This document shows, one piece after another, positions 25,974-30,512 of a stretch of DNA of 38,891 nucleotides (within the stretch, counting starts at the first letter, position 1; the number at the start of each line of letters is the position of its first letter). Both the position numbers and the translations under genes were made by a program. Origin of the DNA: a virus (taxonomy: Duplodnaviria > Heunggongvirae > Uroviricota > Caudoviricetes); the IMG/VR virus record IMGVR_UViG_2576861092_000011, positions 1 to 38,891 of that record, one strand, 5' to 3'. A model generated the notes under the pieces. The model was not told the origin of the DNA. It ran no database searches and saw only the letters and a list, made by a program, of their open reading frames with translations.

Positions 25974-26049
25974 GACTTCCCTCTCCCCCAAATAAAAAGG
26001 CCTGCGATTACCAGCAGGCCTGTTATTAGCTCAGTGATGTGGATGGTCA

Positions 26050-27486
26050 TCAGAATCCTCCTTTCTTCTTGGATTGCGGTTCCTCGCGTTCACGGCGGCG
26101 CATTTCAGCAGACTGTTGGTCTGTGTCATAAATAGCGCCATTTGCCTGAATGCAATACACCGTGCCGGTATTGCCATGACGATTGAGACGAAGGATTAGT
26201 TCGGTTTCACCAGGTGGAACACTGTCATCAAAAGCACCTTCACGATGGATCCCCACCCAATAATCGCAATCCTGTTCAATCTGCCCTGTATCTCGTGAGT
26301 CACTTGGTAATGGGCGTTTATTGGTTCGGCTTTCCAGTGCGCGGTTAAGCTGTGTCAGAAGCACAACAACGCAATCAAGCTCTTTGGCAAGGTTCTTCAG
26401 TCCTTTGGTGATCATGCCGTAAGCAAGGTCGTTGCGATCGGCCTTTTCAGCGGTCATTAGTGTCAGGTAATCGACCAGAATCATGCCAACACATCCTTTT
26501 TCTCGCTTGATTCGACGGCTTTCGCTGACGATTTGAGCCAGAGATAATCCCGGCGTGTCGTCGATGTAAAGCAGGTCGATTTCACTCAAGCGATTGGCTG
26601 TTTCGATCGCCCTGTTGAAGTCACCATCGTAATCACCCTGATAGCCGTCATCAGCGTCATTTGTCGCCGGAAGGTAAAAAATATTCGGGTTAACACCAGA
26701 CTTCTGCCCTACCAGTTTTTCCAGTATCTGGTCACCTGGCATTTCAAGGCTGAACATAAGAGCGGGCTTTTTCTCATGCACTGCGCAGTTGATTGCCATC
26801 TGGCTGTATAGCGTCGTTTTCCCCATCTTAGGGCGAGCACCAATGACAAACAGAGAGCCTTTCACCAGACCTTTCGGTGACAGCATCCTGTCCAGCGATG
26901 GGATACCTGTGCTCATTCCTCGTTGTTCGCCTGATGGGTCAAATCGCTTCTCAAGGTCGCTAACCCAGTCTTCCATGACCTCACCAAATGAGCGAAGGCC
27001 GCGACGCGATCCGGTTTTTGCATGGTCTGTCAGTTGCGTGAAAATCGCCTGAATAGCTTCGTACTTCTGCGTTGCAGTCATTCCGTTGCGGGAATAGAGC
27101 AATTCCGTCGCTTCAGTCATGCGGTTGATGGCGTAGCGTTCCATTGCAGTTTCACGAACCTGCATTGCATAGGCAACGATGTTTGCGGCGCTTGGCGTGT
27201 TCTTTGCGATCTCAGCGATATAAGCAAAACCGCCAACAGACGCCGTTAACGATTTACGCTCCAGTTCATCGAAAAGCGTCAGGCCATCTACTGGCTTTTG
27301 CTCCCGGTGCATTCTGGTTATTTCTTCGAAAAGGATTTTGTGTGGTCGGCTGTAAAATGAATCAGGCTTCAACATCGCCAGAACTTTCTGGACGCGCTCA
27401 CTGCTGTCATCATCCAGAAGCAATCCACCAATCACCGCCTGCTCTGCCTCGATGCTATGGGGCGGCGCATAAAAATTATCGGTCAT
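26050..27486 (-). CDS. Replicative DNA helicase, DnaB family (P22 gp12-like)
   Basis: DnaB N-terminal domain and RecA-like core with Walker A (GARPKMGKT). Start set at ATG 27486 (GAGGGTGA RBS); a GTG at 27501 is possible. Confidence 0.85.
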   Translation of the reverse strand: MTDNFYAPPHSIEAEQAVIGGLLLDDDSSERVQKVLAMLKPDSFYSRPHKILFEEITRMHREQKPVDGLTLFDELERKSLTASVGGFAYIAEIAKNTPSAANIVAYAMQVRETAMERYAINRMTEATELLYSRNGMTATQKYEAIQAIFTQLTDHAKTGSRRGLRSFGEVMEDWVSDLEKRFDPSGEQRGMSTGIPSLDRMLSPKGLVKGSLFVIGARPKMGKTTLYSQMAINCAVHEKKPALMFSLEMPGDQILEKLVGQKSGVNPNIFYLPATNDADDGYQGDYDGDFNRAIETANRLSEIDLLYIDDTPGLSLAQIVSESRRIKREKGCVGMILVDYLTLMTAEKADRNDLAYGMITKGLKNLAKELDCVVVLLTQLNRALESRTNKRPLPSDSRDTGQIEQDCDYWVGIHREGAFDDSVPPGETELILRLNRHGNTGTVYCIQANGAIYDTDQQSAEMRRREREEPQSKKKGGF

Positions 27487-28366
27487 CGTGTTCACCCTCA
27501 CGAACTTTCAGGTAGGTATTATCGTTAAGCAGGAAATCAAATCCCTTTTTGTGCCAGACAGTTCCGCGTTGATGGTTTGGACGCTCTTCGAACATCCATC
27601 GACAATTTTCGCCTACGTAGCTCAAATAATTTCTCCAGTCCTGCATCGTGAACCCATGCCCGTCAAGCTGGCGGGTTATCACTCCGGCTTTGCGCCAGAA
27701 CGTTCGGATCTGGTTTTTACGCTTGTCATTCAGTGCGCGGATTCTTGGCGCTTCAGGAAGGATTTCGTGGTAAGCATCGACAACATCCTGACAGCTGACG
27801 GAAGTTTTTTTCTTGTCAGACTTTTTGTCTGCTGTGGCACTCTCTAATACGTCAGTATTAGAGATATTATTTATATTATTGTTTATGGACAACCGTTGGA
27901 CAACCGTTGGACAATCTCCGCTGAGAGCCGCGACATTACTGGTGTTTGCGTTGGACAACCGTTGGACAACCGTTGGACAATTTTTTGCCTGAAAATCGTC
28001 ATATTTAACGATTGTAAACAGGCTAAATTTCTTCCCCATCGAGCAAATATTAAGCATCCCTTTCGACTCAAAAGTCCGTAATAAGCTCCGAACTTTGTTG
28101 TCGGGGATGAATGTTTCTCTGACCAGCGACGGGCGTCCAGTTATCATCTGACCGCGATCAACAGTTATCGGACCGATATCCGTATTGACGACAGTAGATT
28201 CGTGATTAGCCTTGAGGATTAAGTGAAGCCAAAGATGTACTGCCTGAGAGTCCTTATAGAGCCTGCTGTCCATAAACTGGCGGTGTATAGAGACATACCC
28301 CATACTGGATGCCTCCTGATGTTGTACAGGGTTATGCCTGTAATCAGCTAACTTAACGACGCCCAT
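27476..28366 (-). CDS. Replication initiator protein (lambda O-like) containing the origin iterons
   Basis: 296 aa downstream of cII and upstream of helicase; iteron cluster and AT-rich segment lie inside the ORF as in lambda ori. Confidence 0.8.
   Translation of the reverse strand: MGVVKLADYRHNPVQHQEASSMGYVSIHRQFMDSRLYKDSQAVHLWLHLILKANHESTVVNTDIGPITVDRGQMITGRPSLVRETFIPDNKVRSLLRTFESKGMLNICSMGKKFSLFTIVKYDDFQAKNCPTVVQRLSNANTSNVAALSGDCPTVVQRLSINNNINNISNTDVLESATADKKSDKKKTSVSCQDVVDAYHEILPEAPRIRALNDKRKNQIRTFWRKAGVITRQLDGHGFTMQDWRNYLSYVGENCRWMFEERPNHQRGTVWHKKGFDFLLNDNTYLKVREGEHDDR
27855..27981. repeat. Replication origin: two clusters of 11-bp iterons (GGACAACCGTT x2.6 each) plus adjacent AT-rich region
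   Basis: 27887..27915 and 27953..27981 each read GGACAACCGTTGGACAACCGTTGGACAAT; AT-rich tract at 27855..27886 (tattagagatattatttatattattgtttat). Confidence 0.75.
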
Positions 28367-28548
28367 GTTTCACTCCTGCTTTGGCTAGTCTGTAAACACC
28401 AACAAGGCGCTCTGCGAACGCCCTGTTATTTGCTGCGGCTACCACTAATCCCTCAGGTGAATCAGAGTGTCGAATCTCTTCTTTTTCCTGGTATTTCTTA
28501 CGACGTTTTGTCATAATTACTCCTGTGGATTGATCCAGTCTTTCTACA

Positions 28549-28827
28549 TCAGGCCTCGAAGAATTCGCCGTTCTTCGGGGCTTTTTCTTTTGTCAGCATT
28601 CTGGCTACTTTCTTAGCCAGTTCCGCCAACTCCTCGTCTTCAACACCCCATTCAAGAACAGCCAGAAGCATTCCCATTTTTGGGATGAAGCTGTCTTTCC
28701 ATCGCGAAATTTGCGATTCATTAATCCCTAACGCGTCGGCAACCTTTCGCTGGCCACGTACAGCAATTCGATTCAGGATGTTGCTTGTAATTGCATTCGC
28801 TTTCTTGCGAGTACTTGTAAGTTGCAT
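28549..28827 (-). CDS. cII: CII-like transcriptional activator (P22 c1 / lambda cII family)
   Basis: 92 aa; ..SQISRWKDSFIPKMGMLLAVLEWGVEDEELAELAKKVARMLT.. closely matches lambda CII. Confidence 0.85.
   Translation of the reverse strand: MQLTSTRKKANAITSNILNRIAVRGQRKVADALGINESQISRWKDSFIPKMGMLLAVLEWGVEDEELAELAKKVARMLTKEKAPKNGEFFEA
28553..28590 (+). terminator. Rho-independent terminator on the strand antisense to the cII 3' end (OOP-like antisense RNA terminator)
   Basis: Plus strand GCCTCGAAGAA-ttcgccg-TTCTTCGGGGC (about 11-bp stem) followed by TTTTTCTTTT, inside the 3' end of cII on the opposite strand, as for lambda oop. Confidence 0.5.
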
Positions 28828-28886
28828 ATGTAAGTATTTCCTTAACTAATAAGAAGTTATGCGCATCAACTTATGCGCGTTGTATT

Positions 28887-28929
28887 CCCGCATTTCGGCG
28901 GGAATGAGGACCATGACTGTTAAAGAGCG
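28887..28929 (-). promoter_or_regulatory. nutR: boxA (CGCTCTTTAACA) followed by boxB hairpin (CCCGCCGAAATGCGGG)
   Basis: On the minus strand downstream of cro; boxA and boxB are identical to the nutL copy upstream of N. Confidence 0.65.
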
Positions 28930-28935
28930 GTGTTA

Positions 28936-29130
28936 CTATTTGTTTTTCTTGTTGCTTGGGAAAGGACGAACTTCCTCTCCAATCACACTGCCATCAGGCT
29001 TTACCGTAACCATAATGTTACGACCTGCCAGAATGGCCTTGCTGATAGCGCACTGGATTACACCAAAGTCACTGGCTGCTTTAGCCTGTCCATGGATTTT
29101 GGCGTAATCGGCAAGTGTCATTCGAATCAT
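28936..29130 (-). CDS. cro: Cro repressor
   Basis: [62 protein letters not shown] aligns with lambda Cro; GGAGAG RBS; divergent from cI. Confidence 0.8.
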
Positions 29131-29160
29131 ATGCACTCTCCGTTATTAACCATGAACAAA

Positions 29161-29225
29161 GAATACTACAGGTATTCAAAGCAATCAATACTCAGGGTAT
29201 TTTTAGTTTAAGTACCTTAGCTATT
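29161..29225. promoter_or_regulatory. OR operator region (PR/PRM): palindromic sites AATAC-N5-GTATT
   Basis: GAATACtacagGTATTC (29161..29177) and AATACtcaggGTATT (29188..29202) are perfect dyads; a weaker third site at about 29211..29225. cI ATG has no Shine-Dalgarno, compatible with a leaderless PRM transcript. Confidence 0.55.
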
Positions 29226-29236
29226 AGAATTAAGCT

Positions 29237-29953
29237 ATGGAAAATAAAAAATCACTGACGACAGAACAGCTCGAAGACGCTAAGCGGCTTAAGGCTTTGT
29301 ATGAGTCAAAAAAGAAAGAATTGGGAATAACCCAATACTCAATCGCTGATGAACTGGGTATCACCCAAGGAGCGGTAGGGCATTATCTTAATGGCAGAAA
29401 CGCGCTAAATGTTGAGGTCGCATCTGGTTTTGCACGTTTGTTGCAAGTCTCAATTGCTGATTTTAGCCAGTCAATTGCTGCCAAGGTTGCAGAACAGGCA
29501 GAAAGCCTTAAGAGCGATGCCAACGTAAGGTATGCAGGGGAATACAGAGCAGGAAAGAGGTATCCGGTGTTAAGCAGTATCCAGGCTGGCTCGTGGTGTG
29601 AAGCATGCGAACCATACACCATTAAAGACATAGATGTTTGGCTTGAGTCTGACGCGCATATTCAAGGTAATGCGTTTTGGCTTAAAGTGGAAGGTGATTC
29701 AATGACGGCACCGGTTGGGTTAAGCATTCCAGAGGGAACATTCGTTCTTTTCGATACCGGAAGGGAGGCGATCAACGGCAGCTTGGTCATAGCAAAACTT
29801 TCTGACTCTAACGAAGCAACATTCAAGAAGCTGATAATCGACGGCGGAAATAAATACCTCAAGGGACTTAATCCTGCATGGCCTCTCGTGCCAATCAATG
29901 GAAACTGCAAGATTATAGGCGTTGCAATTGAGACAAAACTCAGACTGGTTTGA
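29237..29953 (+). CDS. cI: CI repressor (HTH plus S24 LexA-like autopeptidase domain)
   Basis: 238 aa; N-terminus similar to lambda CI (..LTTEQLEDAKRLKALYESKKKELGITQ..); C-terminal ..AFWLKVEGDSMTAP.. and ..FKKLI.. match the S24 Ser/Lys peptidase signature. Confidence 0.9.
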   Translation: MENKKSLTTEQLEDAKRLKALYESKKKELGITQYSIADELGITQGAVGHYLNGRNALNVEVASGFARLLQVSIADFSQSIAAKVAEQAESLKSDANVRYAGEYRAGKRYPVLSSIQAGSWCEACEPYTIKDIDVWLESDAHIQGNAFWLKVEGDSMTAPVGLSIPEGTFVLFDTGREAINGSLVIAKLSDSNEATFKKLIIDGGNKYLKGLNPAWPLVPINGNCKIIGVAIETKLRLV

Positions 29954-29971
29954 TCACGCAAGGGGGCGCTT

Positions 29972-30340
29972 ATGGTTGGAACCGCTATAGCAAGCTTTTT
30001 GGGGATGTTGGCAATCTCAACAATTTACGGCTTAGCGCATGCTTTTATTGCGAAATCTCTATCAGAAAAAATAAGCCAGGCTTGGGCGCATAGATCAGCT
30101 CGTTTCATGATTCTAGTTGTCATAGCAATACAAGGGATATCTGCATTTATCCTCTATGGATCAAGCTTATACCTATTGTATCAAGGCGCGACATTTACGC
30201 CTTACACCAGTGATTACGGAACTCTATACGATGGTAGTGAAGACATCACTGTGGCTTGGATCGTCTTTGGTTTATCTATGGCCGTGTCTGTTGTAGCAGA
30301 CATCATTAAGGTAATTCTCGTCTTAACCTTCGCTGACTAA
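29972..30340 (+). CDS. Small integral membrane protein co-transcribed with cI (rex/sie position); candidate superinfection-exclusion or abortive-infection factor
   Basis: 122 aa with 3-4 predicted hydrophobic helices; strong RBS AGGGGG; 18 bp after cI stop on the same strand. Confidence 0.6.
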   Translation: MVGTAIASFLGMLAISTIYGLAHAFIAKSLSEKISQAWAHRSARFMILVVIAIQGISAFILYGSSLYLLYQGATFTPYTSDYGTLYDGSEDITVAWIVFGLSMAVSVVADIIKVILVLTFAD

Positions 30341-30427
30341 CCTATAATCCCGGCAGCAATAGCTATCGGGATCCACTTCACATATCCCGCATAAAAAGCA
30401 CTGAACAAGCAGACACCGAAAAAAATA

Positions 30428-30512
30428 AATATCCTTTGTATTCATTTGCTTATCATTATTTCACCAAAAATAAATACCTTGGGTATTTACACAATAAAAT
30501 ACCTACAGTATT
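30428..30512. promoter_or_regulatory. OL operator region (PL): AATAC-N5-GTATT sites
   Basis: AATACcttggGTATT (30473..30487), AATACctacaGTATT (30498..30512), weaker AATATccttttGTATT (30428..30442); same half-sites as OR. Confidence 0.55.

Follow-up and report, generated by a model that had tools for sequence, protein, structure and literature searches.

The described origins that come closest to the locus reported here are the putative origins of phages L / ST64T, Sf6 and HK620. According to the phage L paper, six imprecise repeats of TGTCCAACGGA (11 bp) in L gene 18 constitute the likely origin, and genetic work cited there places the origin within the replication-gene region (PMC8022706). 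In the searchable literature, we found no experimental, mapping or binding study of this 11-bp iteron origin class. Among other systems, lambda O binds its iterons and opens an AT-rich region (Tsurimoto & Matsubara 1981, cited in PMC8022706; PMC3349717; PMC12663957), P22 gp12 is a DnaB-type helicase (Wickner 1984, likewise cited in PMC8022706), and oriL of SPP1 comprises repeats in direct orientation together with an AT-rich unwinding element inside gene 38, which encodes the binder gp38, with a DnaB-family helicase as partner (PMC6316719).

The locus lies in a stretch of viral DNA of 38,891 nucleotides (hereafter the window), in an initiator gene that is 99% identical to genes of HK75, ECP1, mEp234 and Sf6. 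In Sf6, where the gene has 98.9% DNA identity to that of the window, the feature annotated as "rep_origin, putative" maps onto positions 27886-27981 of the window, and the homologous stretch in the phage L record is likewise annotated as a putative rep_origin. The origin call made here is thus already known, with the site annotated in Sf6 and L and the 11-bp repeat published. The putative origins of L / ST64T, Sf6 and HK620 are the same element as that in the window, with nothing essential different. Phage L, whose gp18 is 82.5% protein-identical, has the 11-bp core, the 3+3 layout, the AT tract and the palindrome in common with the window, and its units differ at positions 1 and 10-11 (TTGTCCAACGG in the window vs. 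ATGTCCAACGG in phage L). The AT tract and the palindrome go unnamed in the rep_origin notes of the L, Sf6 and HK620 records and in the origin passages of the phage L paper.

Layout of the repeats, the AT-rich tract and the palindrome

Six 11-bp repeats with the core TGTCCAACGG lie in the middle of the minus-strand initiator ORF (nt 387-485 of 891), at the position annotated as rep_origin in relatives (Table 1). A 30-nt block, TGGACAACCGTTGGACAACCGTTGGACAAT, is present in two exact copies (27886-27915 and 27952-27981) whose starts are 66 bp apart, i.e., 6 × 11 bp or 22 codons, and TRF returned two arrays with an 11-bp period and 100% matches, at 27886-27914 (2.6 copies) and 27949-27980 (2.9 copies). 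A preliminary description of this DNA had placed two iteron clusters about 37 bp apart in the middle of the initiator gene, next to an AT-rich tract, and in all three respects it was correct: the arrays are separated by 36-37 bp when the truncated third unit GGACAAT is counted (44 bp between perfect 11-mers). It did, however, allow only two units per cluster where there are three, the third of each cluster retaining the TTGTCCA core, and its start coordinate of 27855 cuts through a 24-bp palindrome that belongs to the same element. Exact GGACAACCGTT occurs four times in the 38.9-kb window, always within these repeats, against 0.01 copies expected by chance (none of 100 shuffles gave four), and a scan of the whole window found no further copies of the 11-mer outside them.

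Table 1. Features of the initiator gene, the putative origin within it and the adjoining helicase gene (window coordinates; repeat and tract sequences as on the coding strand).
Feature	Position	Strand	Details
Replication initiator gene	27476..28366	-	891-nt ORF, 296 aa; phage L / Sf6 gp43 / HK022 gp54 class
N-terminal winged-helix-like domain (aa 21-130)	27977..28306	-	AlphaFold model pLDDT 75-95; putative iteron-binding domain
Iteron cluster A	27948..27980	-	contiguous 11-bp units TTGTCCAACGG, TTGTCCAACGG, TTGTCCAACGC; encodes C130-N139
Interdomain linker (aa 131-189)	27800..27976	-	contains every origin element
Inter-cluster spacer	27915..27947	-	33 bp; length fixed, sequence hypervariable
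Iteron cluster B	27882..27914	-	TTGTCCAACGG, TTGTCCAACGG, TTGTCCATAAA (last cut to core); encodes C152-I161
A-rich, AT-rich tract	27865..27884	-	AAACAATAATATAAATAATA, 20 bp, 5% GC; putative DNA-unwinding element
Perfect palindrome	27841..27864	.	24 bp, TCTCTAATAC-TGAC-GTATTAGAGA, arms and centre 10+4+10
C-terminal domain (aa 190-296)	27479..27799	-	pLDDT 74-93; putative helicase-recruiting domain
DnaB-type replicative helicase gene, P22 gp12-like	26050..27486	-	Pfam DnaB 3.5e-31, DnaB_C 3e-60

Read in the coding direction, the repeats are followed by the tract of 5% GC and then by the palindrome. At the tract, the GC content of 40-nt windows drops to a local minimum of 22-27%, and the palindrome, treated as single-stranded DNA, is predicted to form a hairpin on either strand, of -7.6 kcal/mol (z = -7.0) on one and -7.5 kcal/mol (z = -6.4) on the other. 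A promoter scan picked out TGGACA-18-GACAAT in each cluster, a weak match (9/12), and the number of sites did not exceed that in shuffled sequence. No RNA family in Rfam matched positions 26000-30500 at E ≤ 1. The units of this phage show an internal dyad, GTTG-GA-CAAC, which is absent from the HK022, Klebsiella and Chronis-type units, and no dyad is conserved across lineages.

The initiator protein and its counterparts in other systems

The initiator protein matches PHROG 345 ("replication initiation O-like") along its full length (E = 2e-84). No Pfam family exceeded the cut-off for this protein, DnaD among them, and a PDB sequence search returned no matches. PF04492 (Phage_rep_O) gave no match at E ≤ 1 to either residues 1-129 or the whole protein, in a search whose positive controls, lambda O and P22 gp18, scored 5.7e-36 and 6.9e-38, and hhalign detected no relationship to lambda O (probability 0.3%). 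The gene is located downstream of cII (28549-28827; PF05269, 1.8e-42), and the order cII, small ORF, initiator, DnaB helicase is that of P22-like and lambdoid phages; the helicase gene overlaps the initiator gene by 11 nt, with its ATG at 27486, in agreement with the coordinates of Sf6 gene 44. The gene had been called O-like beforehand, and by its position and putative role it is, but its DNA-binding domain has no homology to that of lambda O that sequence comparison could detect.

A first structure model, built on a shallow alignment (14 sequences of at least 72% identity), gave a pLDDT below 50 for the N-terminal domain; a second, built on 47 diverse sequences, is the basis of the domain values in Table 1. 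Residues 131-187, between two confident domains, had a pLDDT below 50 in both models, and the stretch encoded by the repeats coincides with this low-confidence linker and is probably disordered. When the N-domain model was submitted to Foldseek, all matches were weak (E ≥ 0.02) and most were winged-helix DNA binders, including RepA_N plasmid initiators; together with the predicted model, these scores suggest a winged-helix-like fold. Structures 4pt7 and 4pql, which we take to be RepA_N N-terminal domains, were among the matches. RepA_N plasmids of Gram-positive bacteria have their iterated origin in the middle portion of repA, but the structural similarity to their initiators is weak (E about 0.1) and comes without a PDB sequence match, and they are plasmids, not phages. 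Two "DnaD-like" families, PHROG 2514 (7.8e-24) and PHROG 186 (2.9e-16), match residues 18-188 of the initiator, and in tblastn the N-domain shares 27-32% identity with annotated DnaD-like proteins from phages of Staphylococcus, Lactobacillus and Bacillus; the matches in phages of Gram-positive hosts carry the label "DnaD-like helicase loader" or "replisome organizer".

The likeness to lambda lies in the arrangement. In both, the origin is inside the initiator gene, in the early right operon downstream of cII; repeats are followed by an A-rich tract and then by a palindrome whose centre measures 4 nt (12+4+12 in lambda, 10+4+10 in the window); and the N-terminal domain and the repeats act as one specificity module. 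However, lambda has four dyad-symmetric iterons of 18-20 bp, spaced 20, 24 and 23 bp, whereas the window has two triplets of contiguous 11-bp direct repeats; the N-domain of lambda O belongs to the Phage_rep_O family and that of the window initiator does not; and lambda uses the loader P to borrow host DnaB, whereas the partner here is the phage's own DnaB-type helicase. A specificity distinct from that of lambda had been proposed from the iteron sequence, and the difference goes further than this, extending to an N-domain outside PF04492 and to contiguous 11-bp repeats in place of spaced 18-20-bp dyads.

P22 is closer in some respects, having the same gene order, a DnaB-type helicase partner (gp12) and an initiator that also matches PHROG 345 along its whole length (E = 6.7e-88); its origin, in the linker region of gene 18, likewise has an A-rich tract and, after it, the palindrome CCCCCT-AA-AGGGGG. 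A direct hhalign comparison of the initiator C-domain with the gp18 C-terminus was weak (probability 7%, E = 0.005). The N-domain of gp18, in contrast, is of the lambda O type, as its PF04492 score shows, and P22 has four dyad iterons of about 20 bp with lambda spacing; the phage L paper reports an identity of only 25% between P22 gp18 and L gp18, which is a relative of the window protein (PMC8022706). SPP1 resembles the window in having its origin in the gene of the binding protein and in using a DnaB-family helicase, and differs in having a separate loader, gp39, and a second origin (PMC6316719); the N-domain similarity on this side is distant, the 27-32% having been measured to annotated DnaD-like proteins of Staphylococcus, Lactobacillus and Bacillus phages.

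Variation and covariation among relatives

We compared about 115 relatives of 37-99% identity; viral contigs supplied mostly near-identical loci, and the useful diversity came from genome contigs. CCA cores stand at offsets 0, 11, 22, 66, 77 and 88 in 61 of 63 distinct relatives, which cover 37-99% protein identity and come from Escherichia, Salmonella, Klebsiella, Yersinia, Erwinia, Pantoea and others, and the start-to-start distance of the clusters is 66 bp in every locus except in one lineage (L105/L106), which has a 12-bp period and another cluster spacing. Because this lineage departs from it, the 11/66 geometry is not absolute. The sequences flanking the cores are lineage-specific and identical in both clusters of a locus, i.e., the clusters change in concert. 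In a set of 53 close relatives, little or no variation is seen at unit positions 1-9 and none in the A-rich tract and the palindrome, whereas 33% of sites vary in the spacer as compared to 7.5-9% in the two domains. An AT-rich tract was found at the equivalent place in all relatives compared.

The type of iteron core tracks the sequence of an initiator helix (aa 89-101) across lineages: TGTCCAAC is found with DNKV[KR]SLLR, TTACCAGCA with DRVQYLLRKF and GTGCCAACA with DR[VI]KYLLNKF; the determinants predicted within this helix are R93/S94 against Q/Y. In HK022, whose type of unit is TTACCAGCARA, the N-domain and the iterons both differ while the palindrome and the C-domain are nearly identical, so the N-domain and its iterons appear to move as one module. 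Cluster number varies as well. Initiator alleles of three lengths occur naturally (274, 296 and 318 aa); they are set apart by entire 66-bp modules and have one, two or three clusters, the 22-aa insertions and deletions falling in the linker. One- and three-cluster alleles came only from prophages or uncultivated viral contigs; none was from an isolated phage among the 12 best matches listed for each allele, the isolated phages there all being of two-cluster length.

The palindrome has changed in a different manner. Across 15 distinct variants, all 10 pairs have changed on both sides and 97.3% of the cells remain paired, and the resulting covariation score of 0.865 was reached by none of 500 shuffles (slid controls ≤ 0.2). 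As a whole, the comparison of relatives strongly supports a function of the repeats and their neighbours at the DNA level.

A putative replication origin and the alternatives

The repeats, the A-rich tract and the palindrome very likely form a replication origin in the linker-coding part of the initiator gene. Origin iterons inside this gene had been proposed at the outset, and the proposal agrees with the rep_origin annotations in Sf6 and L, the published L repeat and the fixed phasing, as well as with the concerted change of the clusters, their covariation with the N-domain and the conserved neighbouring elements. Cumulative GC skew, which had been suggested as a check, does have its minimum at about 27-30.5 kb; because gene orientation also switches in this region, at about 29.2 kb (cro/cI), the skew does not discriminate.

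We propose that the initiator would be made from the early rightward operon and that its N-terminal winged-helix-like domains would bind the six repeats. Because the units have no conserved internal dyad, the domains probably bind singly and head-to-tail, with roughly one monomer to each helical turn; binding of a dimer to a dyad was not adopted, as the dyad of this phage's units is missing in HK022, Klebsiella and Chronis-type units. The nucleoprotein complex would then strain and open the adjoining A-rich tract, and the C-terminal domain, which may be of the same type as that of P22 gp18, would bring the phage's own DnaB-type helicase, the product of the next gene, onto the opened DNA, after which host primase and polymerase would take over. 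The least certain step concerns the palindrome. It may be a structure-specific origin element, forming a hairpin or cruciform that aids opening, helicase loading or priming, and we hold this view only tentatively; it is suggested by the retention of pairing through at least 15 variants and by the presence of palindromes at the equivalent place in the origins of lambda and P22.

Alternatively, the palindrome could be a terminator or attenuator of antisense (+ strand) transcription or could form a hairpin within the mRNA of the initiator. A consensus scan did find 27841-27864 plus the following TATTATTTAT to be terminator-like on the + strand, and an antisense-strand "terminator" feature in the phage L record (source unstated) spans the equivalent position. 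However, the stem is AT-rich, with 3 of 10 pairs G-C, the tail is a mixture of A and T instead of a T run, and no convincing antisense promoter was found upstream (5 promoter-like sites vs. 3.1 ± 1.6 expected). Only 1 of 150 pair cells holds a G-T pair (G-U in the tool's RNA notation), as would be expected if both DNA strands, or a duplex dyad, were constrained, and this near-total Watson-Crick pairing disfavours constraint on a single RNA. With palindromes in the same place in the lambda and P22 origins, we consider a role in transcription or in the mRNA unlikely. As a candidate origin element, the covarying palindrome would be an under-studied one, and bacterial defences are beginning to be seen to target phage origins (PMC12663957). 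LmuB of Lamassu shows enrichment at the lambda origin, and palindromes reportedly trigger it (PMC12663957); structured origin DNA could also be what replication-sensing defence systems detect.

The repeats themselves might be initiator sites for autoregulation, copy control or a roadblock/rolling-circle switch, with replication starting elsewhere. Plasmid iterons have control roles. In SPP1, a second set of repeats, oriR, is also bound by gp38, and it has been proposed that this binding makes forks stall (PMC6316719). Yet the 11-mer has no other copy in the window, the AT-rich tract and the palindrome always directly follow the repeats, as at the proven lambda origin, and the genetics cited in the phage L paper put the origin in the replication-gene region (PMC8022706), all of which makes a purely regulatory role decidedly improbable.

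A role of the repeat in the protein is more improbable still. The peptide CPTVVQRLS is present at residues 130-138 and 152-160, bearing out the earlier observation that the iterons encode PTVVQRLS twice, and it could be a functional peptide repeat for which the DNA periodicity is incidental; a peptide pair is indeed kept as a pair in all relatives. However, 11 bp is not a multiple of three, so that the three units of each cluster are read in three frames to yield one peptide, and for this reason the repeated peptide is, as we read the sequence, a passive by-product of the DNA repeat in the low-confidence linker and not a protein repeat. Moreover, the peptide varies between lineages (CPTVVQRLS, VPADYQQIT, VPTECQQSA, CPADVQPVS, NPKEIQGKS) whereas neither the DNA geometry nor the CCA core changes, the segment is predicted to be disordered, and alleles with one, two or three copies occur. 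That the repeats are a neutral, functionless product of replication slippage or unequal recombination is hardly credible: the copy-number variants of whole 66-bp modules show that unequal recombination happens at the locus, but the geometry persists down to 37% protein identity, and the cores show no variation, in contrast to the spacer separating them, which is four times more variable than the domains on either side.

As a putative origin, the site offers a clean natural experiment in which a DNA signal and a protein-coding sequence occupy the same bases. It sits exactly in the predicted disordered linker, where the 11-bp helical period overrides codon periodicity; its repeats and the predicted recognition helix evolve together, and whole 66-bp modules are gained and lost. 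The lineage-specific pairs of iteron and helix could serve as a ready table from which to predict whether lambdoid, P22-like and Stx prophages are compatible in replication.

Anatomy of the probable origin within the initiator gene

The window is that of a mosaic P22-like/lambdoid coliphage, with its best overall matches to IME10, E212 and Kapi1 (∼96% identity over parts of the query), and the repeats lie in an operon of the lambdoid early-right type, which is read from the minus strand. Direct reading of positions 27400–28500 confirmed the claim of the preliminary description that iterons inside the initiator gene encode a repeated peptide: the repeats, at window positions 27886–27981, fall within the minus-strand ORF, and CPTVVQRLS occurs at residues 130–138 and 152–160. 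Tandem Repeats Finder returned two arrays of 11-bp period with 100% matches (27886–27914 and 27949–27980), and a repeat finder located a 30-nt block twice with zero mismatches and a start-to-start distance of 66 bp. The two clusters are thus real, but each holds three units rather than two. An 11-bp unit is not a whole number of codons, and successive units of a cluster therefore fall in three different frames (TGT CCA ACG / GTT GTC CAA CGG / TTG TCC AAC), so that each cluster encodes one peptide of 9–11 residues instead of three short repeats. The exact 11-mer first reported occurs four times in the window, all within these repeats (0.01 expected from shuffles); with two mismatches allowed its count in the window was at chance level, indicating that there are no dispersed copies. 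The AT-rich tract described beside the repeats is present, and the element as a whole extends 14 bp further left than had been delimited. Promoter-like matches within the clusters were at chance level, an Rfam search of the region gave no match, and cumulative GC-skew, which had been proposed as a check, yielded a signal confounded by gene orientation.

Features of the initiator region and its neighbourhood
Feature	Position	Strand	Remarks
cI-like repressor	29237–29953	plus	
cro-like gene	28936–29136	minus	in operon
cII		minus	in operon; PF05269, 1.8e-42
Terminator-like hairpin	28551–28593	plus	strong; 14 pairs then T run; antisense to cII 3' end
53-aa ORF	28353–28514	minus	PHROG 1331; between cII and initiator; 14-nt overlap with initiator start
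Initiator	27476–28366	minus	296 aa; after 53-aa ORF
Cluster 1 units (coding strand)	27948–27980	minus	TTGTCCAACGG, TTGTCCAACGG, TTGTCCAACGC
Cluster 2 units (coding strand)	27882–27914	minus	TTGTCCAACGG, TTGTCCAACGG, TTGTCCATAAA
30-nt block	27886–27915 and 27952–27981		TGGACAACCGTTGGACAACCGTTGGACAAT
AT tract	27865–27884		AAACAATAATATAAATAATA; 5% GC; regional GC minimum; 3' of repeats in coding direction
Perfect palindrome	27841–27864		TCTCTAATAC-TGAC-GTATTAGAGA; after repeats in coding direction
DnaB-type helicase gene		minus	after initiator, 11-nt overlap; Pfam DnaB and DnaB_C

The site itself is already known. Genes 99% identical to that of the initiator occur in HK75, ECP1, HK106, mEp234, IME10 and Sf6, and the rep_origin feature of the Sf6 record (AF547987), annotated as 'putative; repeat region reminiscent of the phage lambda origin; similar to phage HK620', transfers to window positions 27886–27981. 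In phage L (82.5% protein identity) the homologous site is annotated 'putative origin of replication', and the genome paper of that phage names the 11-bp repeat, present in six copies, as the likely origin (PMC8022706). The origin proposed in the preliminary description coincides with a putative one annotated in near-identical phages, and we consider it highly probable that the site is an origin bound by the N-domain of the initiator. No experimental mapping or binding study of this L/Sf6-type origin class was found in the searchable literature. Our analysis adds the strict 11/66-bp phasing with a hypervariable spacer, copy-number variants of the repeat module, covariation of the repeats with the predicted recognition helix, and a strongly covarying palindrome, all of which are refinements of a known kind rather than a new kind.

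Two neighbouring features were also observed. A small ORF of 147–165 nt is annotated at the position of the 53-aa ORF in every relative examined; its Sf6 counterpart, gene 42, is annotated as an HK97 gp53 homologue. The plus-strand hairpin, which had no Rfam match, corresponds in position to the terminator of oop RNA, which is known in lambda and is annotated in P22.

Variation of repeats and spacer among relatives

Initiator loci were collected from annotated phages, 80 viral contigs and one-genome-per-species bacterial assemblies (31 loci), at 37–99% protein identity to the window, and were positioned relative to the conserved KYD[DE][FY]Q motif that closes the N-domain. The comparison gave evidence that selection acts on the DNA. 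A CCA core recurs at offsets 0, 11, 22, 66, 77 and 88 in 61 of 63 distinct relatives, with lineage-specific flanks (TTGTCCAACGG, ATGTCCAGCCG, ATTACCAGCAA, AGTGCCAACAG, AAATCCAAGGA). Within a genome the two clusters share one variant, and the two encoded peptides therefore change together (CPTVVQRLS, CPADVQPVS, VPADYQQIT, VPTECQQSA or NPKEIQGKS). The core type also tracks the sequence of a predicted helix at aa 89–101: TGTCCAAC occurs with DNKV[KR]SLLR, TGTCCAGCC with DRVK[SA]LLRKF, TTACCAGCA with DRVQYLLRKF, and GTGCCAACA with DR[VI]KYLLNKF. HK022 differs from the window in N-domain and repeats while its palindrome and C-terminal half are nearly identical, indicating that the N-domain and its repeats are exchanged as one unit.

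Among 53 distinct close relatives of the gene (≥94% identity), unit positions 1–9 are nearly constant, with changes at 2 of 54 positions; variation within units falls mostly at positions 10–11, and none of the 41 positions in the AT tract and palindrome varies. In the 33-bp inter-cluster spacer, 33% of sites vary, as compared to 7.5–9% in the two protein domains; its length is thus fixed and its sequence free, the hallmark of a constraint on distance or helical phase.

Natural alleles of 274, 296 and 318 aa (277 versus 299 aa in Salmonella) differ in steps of exactly one 22-codon module (66 bp) and hold one, two or three clusters (e.g., loci L064 and L062; among the collected proteins, P0001–P0022 are 318 aa, P0032–P0042 are 274 aa and P0094 is 277 aa). 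One- and three-cluster forms came only from bacterial genomes or uncultivated viral contigs; among the best 12 matches listed per allele, no isolated phage had either form, all being of two-cluster length. More distant relatives (25–45% identity) often show peptide repeats in this position, with a spacing of 11 or 22 residues.

Two loci, from Silvania hatchlandensis (L105) and a Leclercia MAG (L106), have a 12-bp rather than 11-bp repeat period in the initiator linker, with ATTACCA units at offsets 49, 61, 73 and about 117, 129, 141 (cluster spacing ∼68 bp versus 66 bp elsewhere), and their units consequently fall in a single frame (NYQP/NYQE/DYQ). Enterobacterial-type initiator genes were also encountered in an assembly labelled Chryseobacterium sp. 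18061 (Bacteroidota; L090, 85% identity) and in a 501-bp contig labelled Catenulispora yoronensis (Actinomycetota; L116, 57% identity); these labels probably reflect contamination or mislabelling, not real host range.

Initiator family

The AlphaFold model, built from a diverse 47-sequence alignment, has two confident domains (aa 21–130, pLDDT 75–95; aa 190–296, pLDDT 74–93) joined by a segment (aa 131–187, pLDDT <50) that is exactly the part encoded by the repeats, AT tract and palindrome together with a Lys-rich tail. The predicted N-domain has a helix-helix-beta-hairpin layout, and its Foldseek matches, although weak (E ≥ 0.02), were mostly winged-helix DNA binders, including RepA_N plasmid initiators; a PDB sequence search with the initiator returned no match. 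Pfam Phage_rep_O did not match the initiator even at E ≤ 1 (controls: lambda O, 5.7e-36; P22 gp18, 6.9e-38), and hhalign against lambda O gave a probability of 0.3%. The phage L genome paper gives L gp18 as 15% identical to lambda O and 25% to P22 gp18 (PMC8022706). PHROG 345 is matched at full length by both P22 gp18, which has a lambda-type N-domain, and the window initiator, and PHROG 2514 is matched by the N-domain of the latter and by the C-terminal half of lambda O. Judged by such profiles, which show domain shuffling, lambdoid initiators appear to be two-domain mosaics (PHROG 345, 2514 and 277 matches): lambda O would be lambda-type in both domains, P22 gp18 would join a lambda-type N-domain to a gp12-helicase-type C-domain, and the window initiator an L-type N-domain to the latter. 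In PHROG 2514 members, an L-type N-domain seems to be joined to a C-domain of lambda type. The term 'O-like' thus fits the position and presumed role of the gene but, given the Pfam, hhalign and PHROG results, is wrong as a statement of homology of the DNA-binding domain.

Palindrome and proposed mechanism

A perfect or near-perfect 24-nt palindrome (10+4+10) is found in every relative at a fixed offset 3' of the AT tract, in at least 15 different sequences (loci L001–L007 and L086–L117). In an alignment of these 15 variants, 97.3% of cells are paired, and each of the 10 pairs has changed on both sides, with 48 cells of this kind; the covariation score of 0.865, as compared to at most 0.20 with partners slid, was matched by 0 of 500 shuffles. 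G-T pairs (G-U in the RNA notation of the tool) account for 1 of 150 cells, the T and A at the two central positions never change, and the flanks ATA and GTG show full or near-full conservation. Modelled as single-stranded DNA, both strands form hairpins of about −7.5 kcal/mol (z = −6.4 and −7.0). The near-exclusive Watson-Crick pairing argues for a constraint acting on DNA (both strands or a duplex dyad), not on one RNA, and the variety of its sequences points to a structure, not to one fixed sequence recognised by a protein. A consensus scan, and an antisense-strand 'terminator' feature spanning the equivalent position in the L record, suggest instead that the palindrome and the T-rich run following it form a weak antisense terminator, but this is improbable: the stem is rich in A and T, the tail mixes the two bases, and no convincing promoter for antisense transcription is present.

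These comparisons establish the anatomy of the site, its conservation, and the covariation of repeats with N-domain. The analogy with lambda O and P22 gp18/gp12, together with the geometry of the units, suggests that winged-helix domains of the initiator occupy the six 11-bp direct repeats, one to each helical turn. Binding is probably head-to-tail, since the internal dyad in the units of the window phage is absent in other lineages; such a mode would resemble the way PhoB binds the 11-bp direct repeats in pho boxes. The two triplets, at their 66-bp distance, may then be brought into one complex, the A-rich tract beside them would melt, and the C-domain would deliver the phage DnaB-type helicase. 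The site differs from the lambda origin in the architecture of its repeats, the family of its initiator and the helicase partner. In lambda, a 12+4+12 palindrome lies ∼42 bp beyond the last iteron; in P22, the A-rich tract is directly followed by CCCCCT-AA-AGGGGG, whose end coincides exactly with that of the annotated rep_origin. The three lambdoid origin classes thus share the same succession of repeats, A-rich tract and palindrome.
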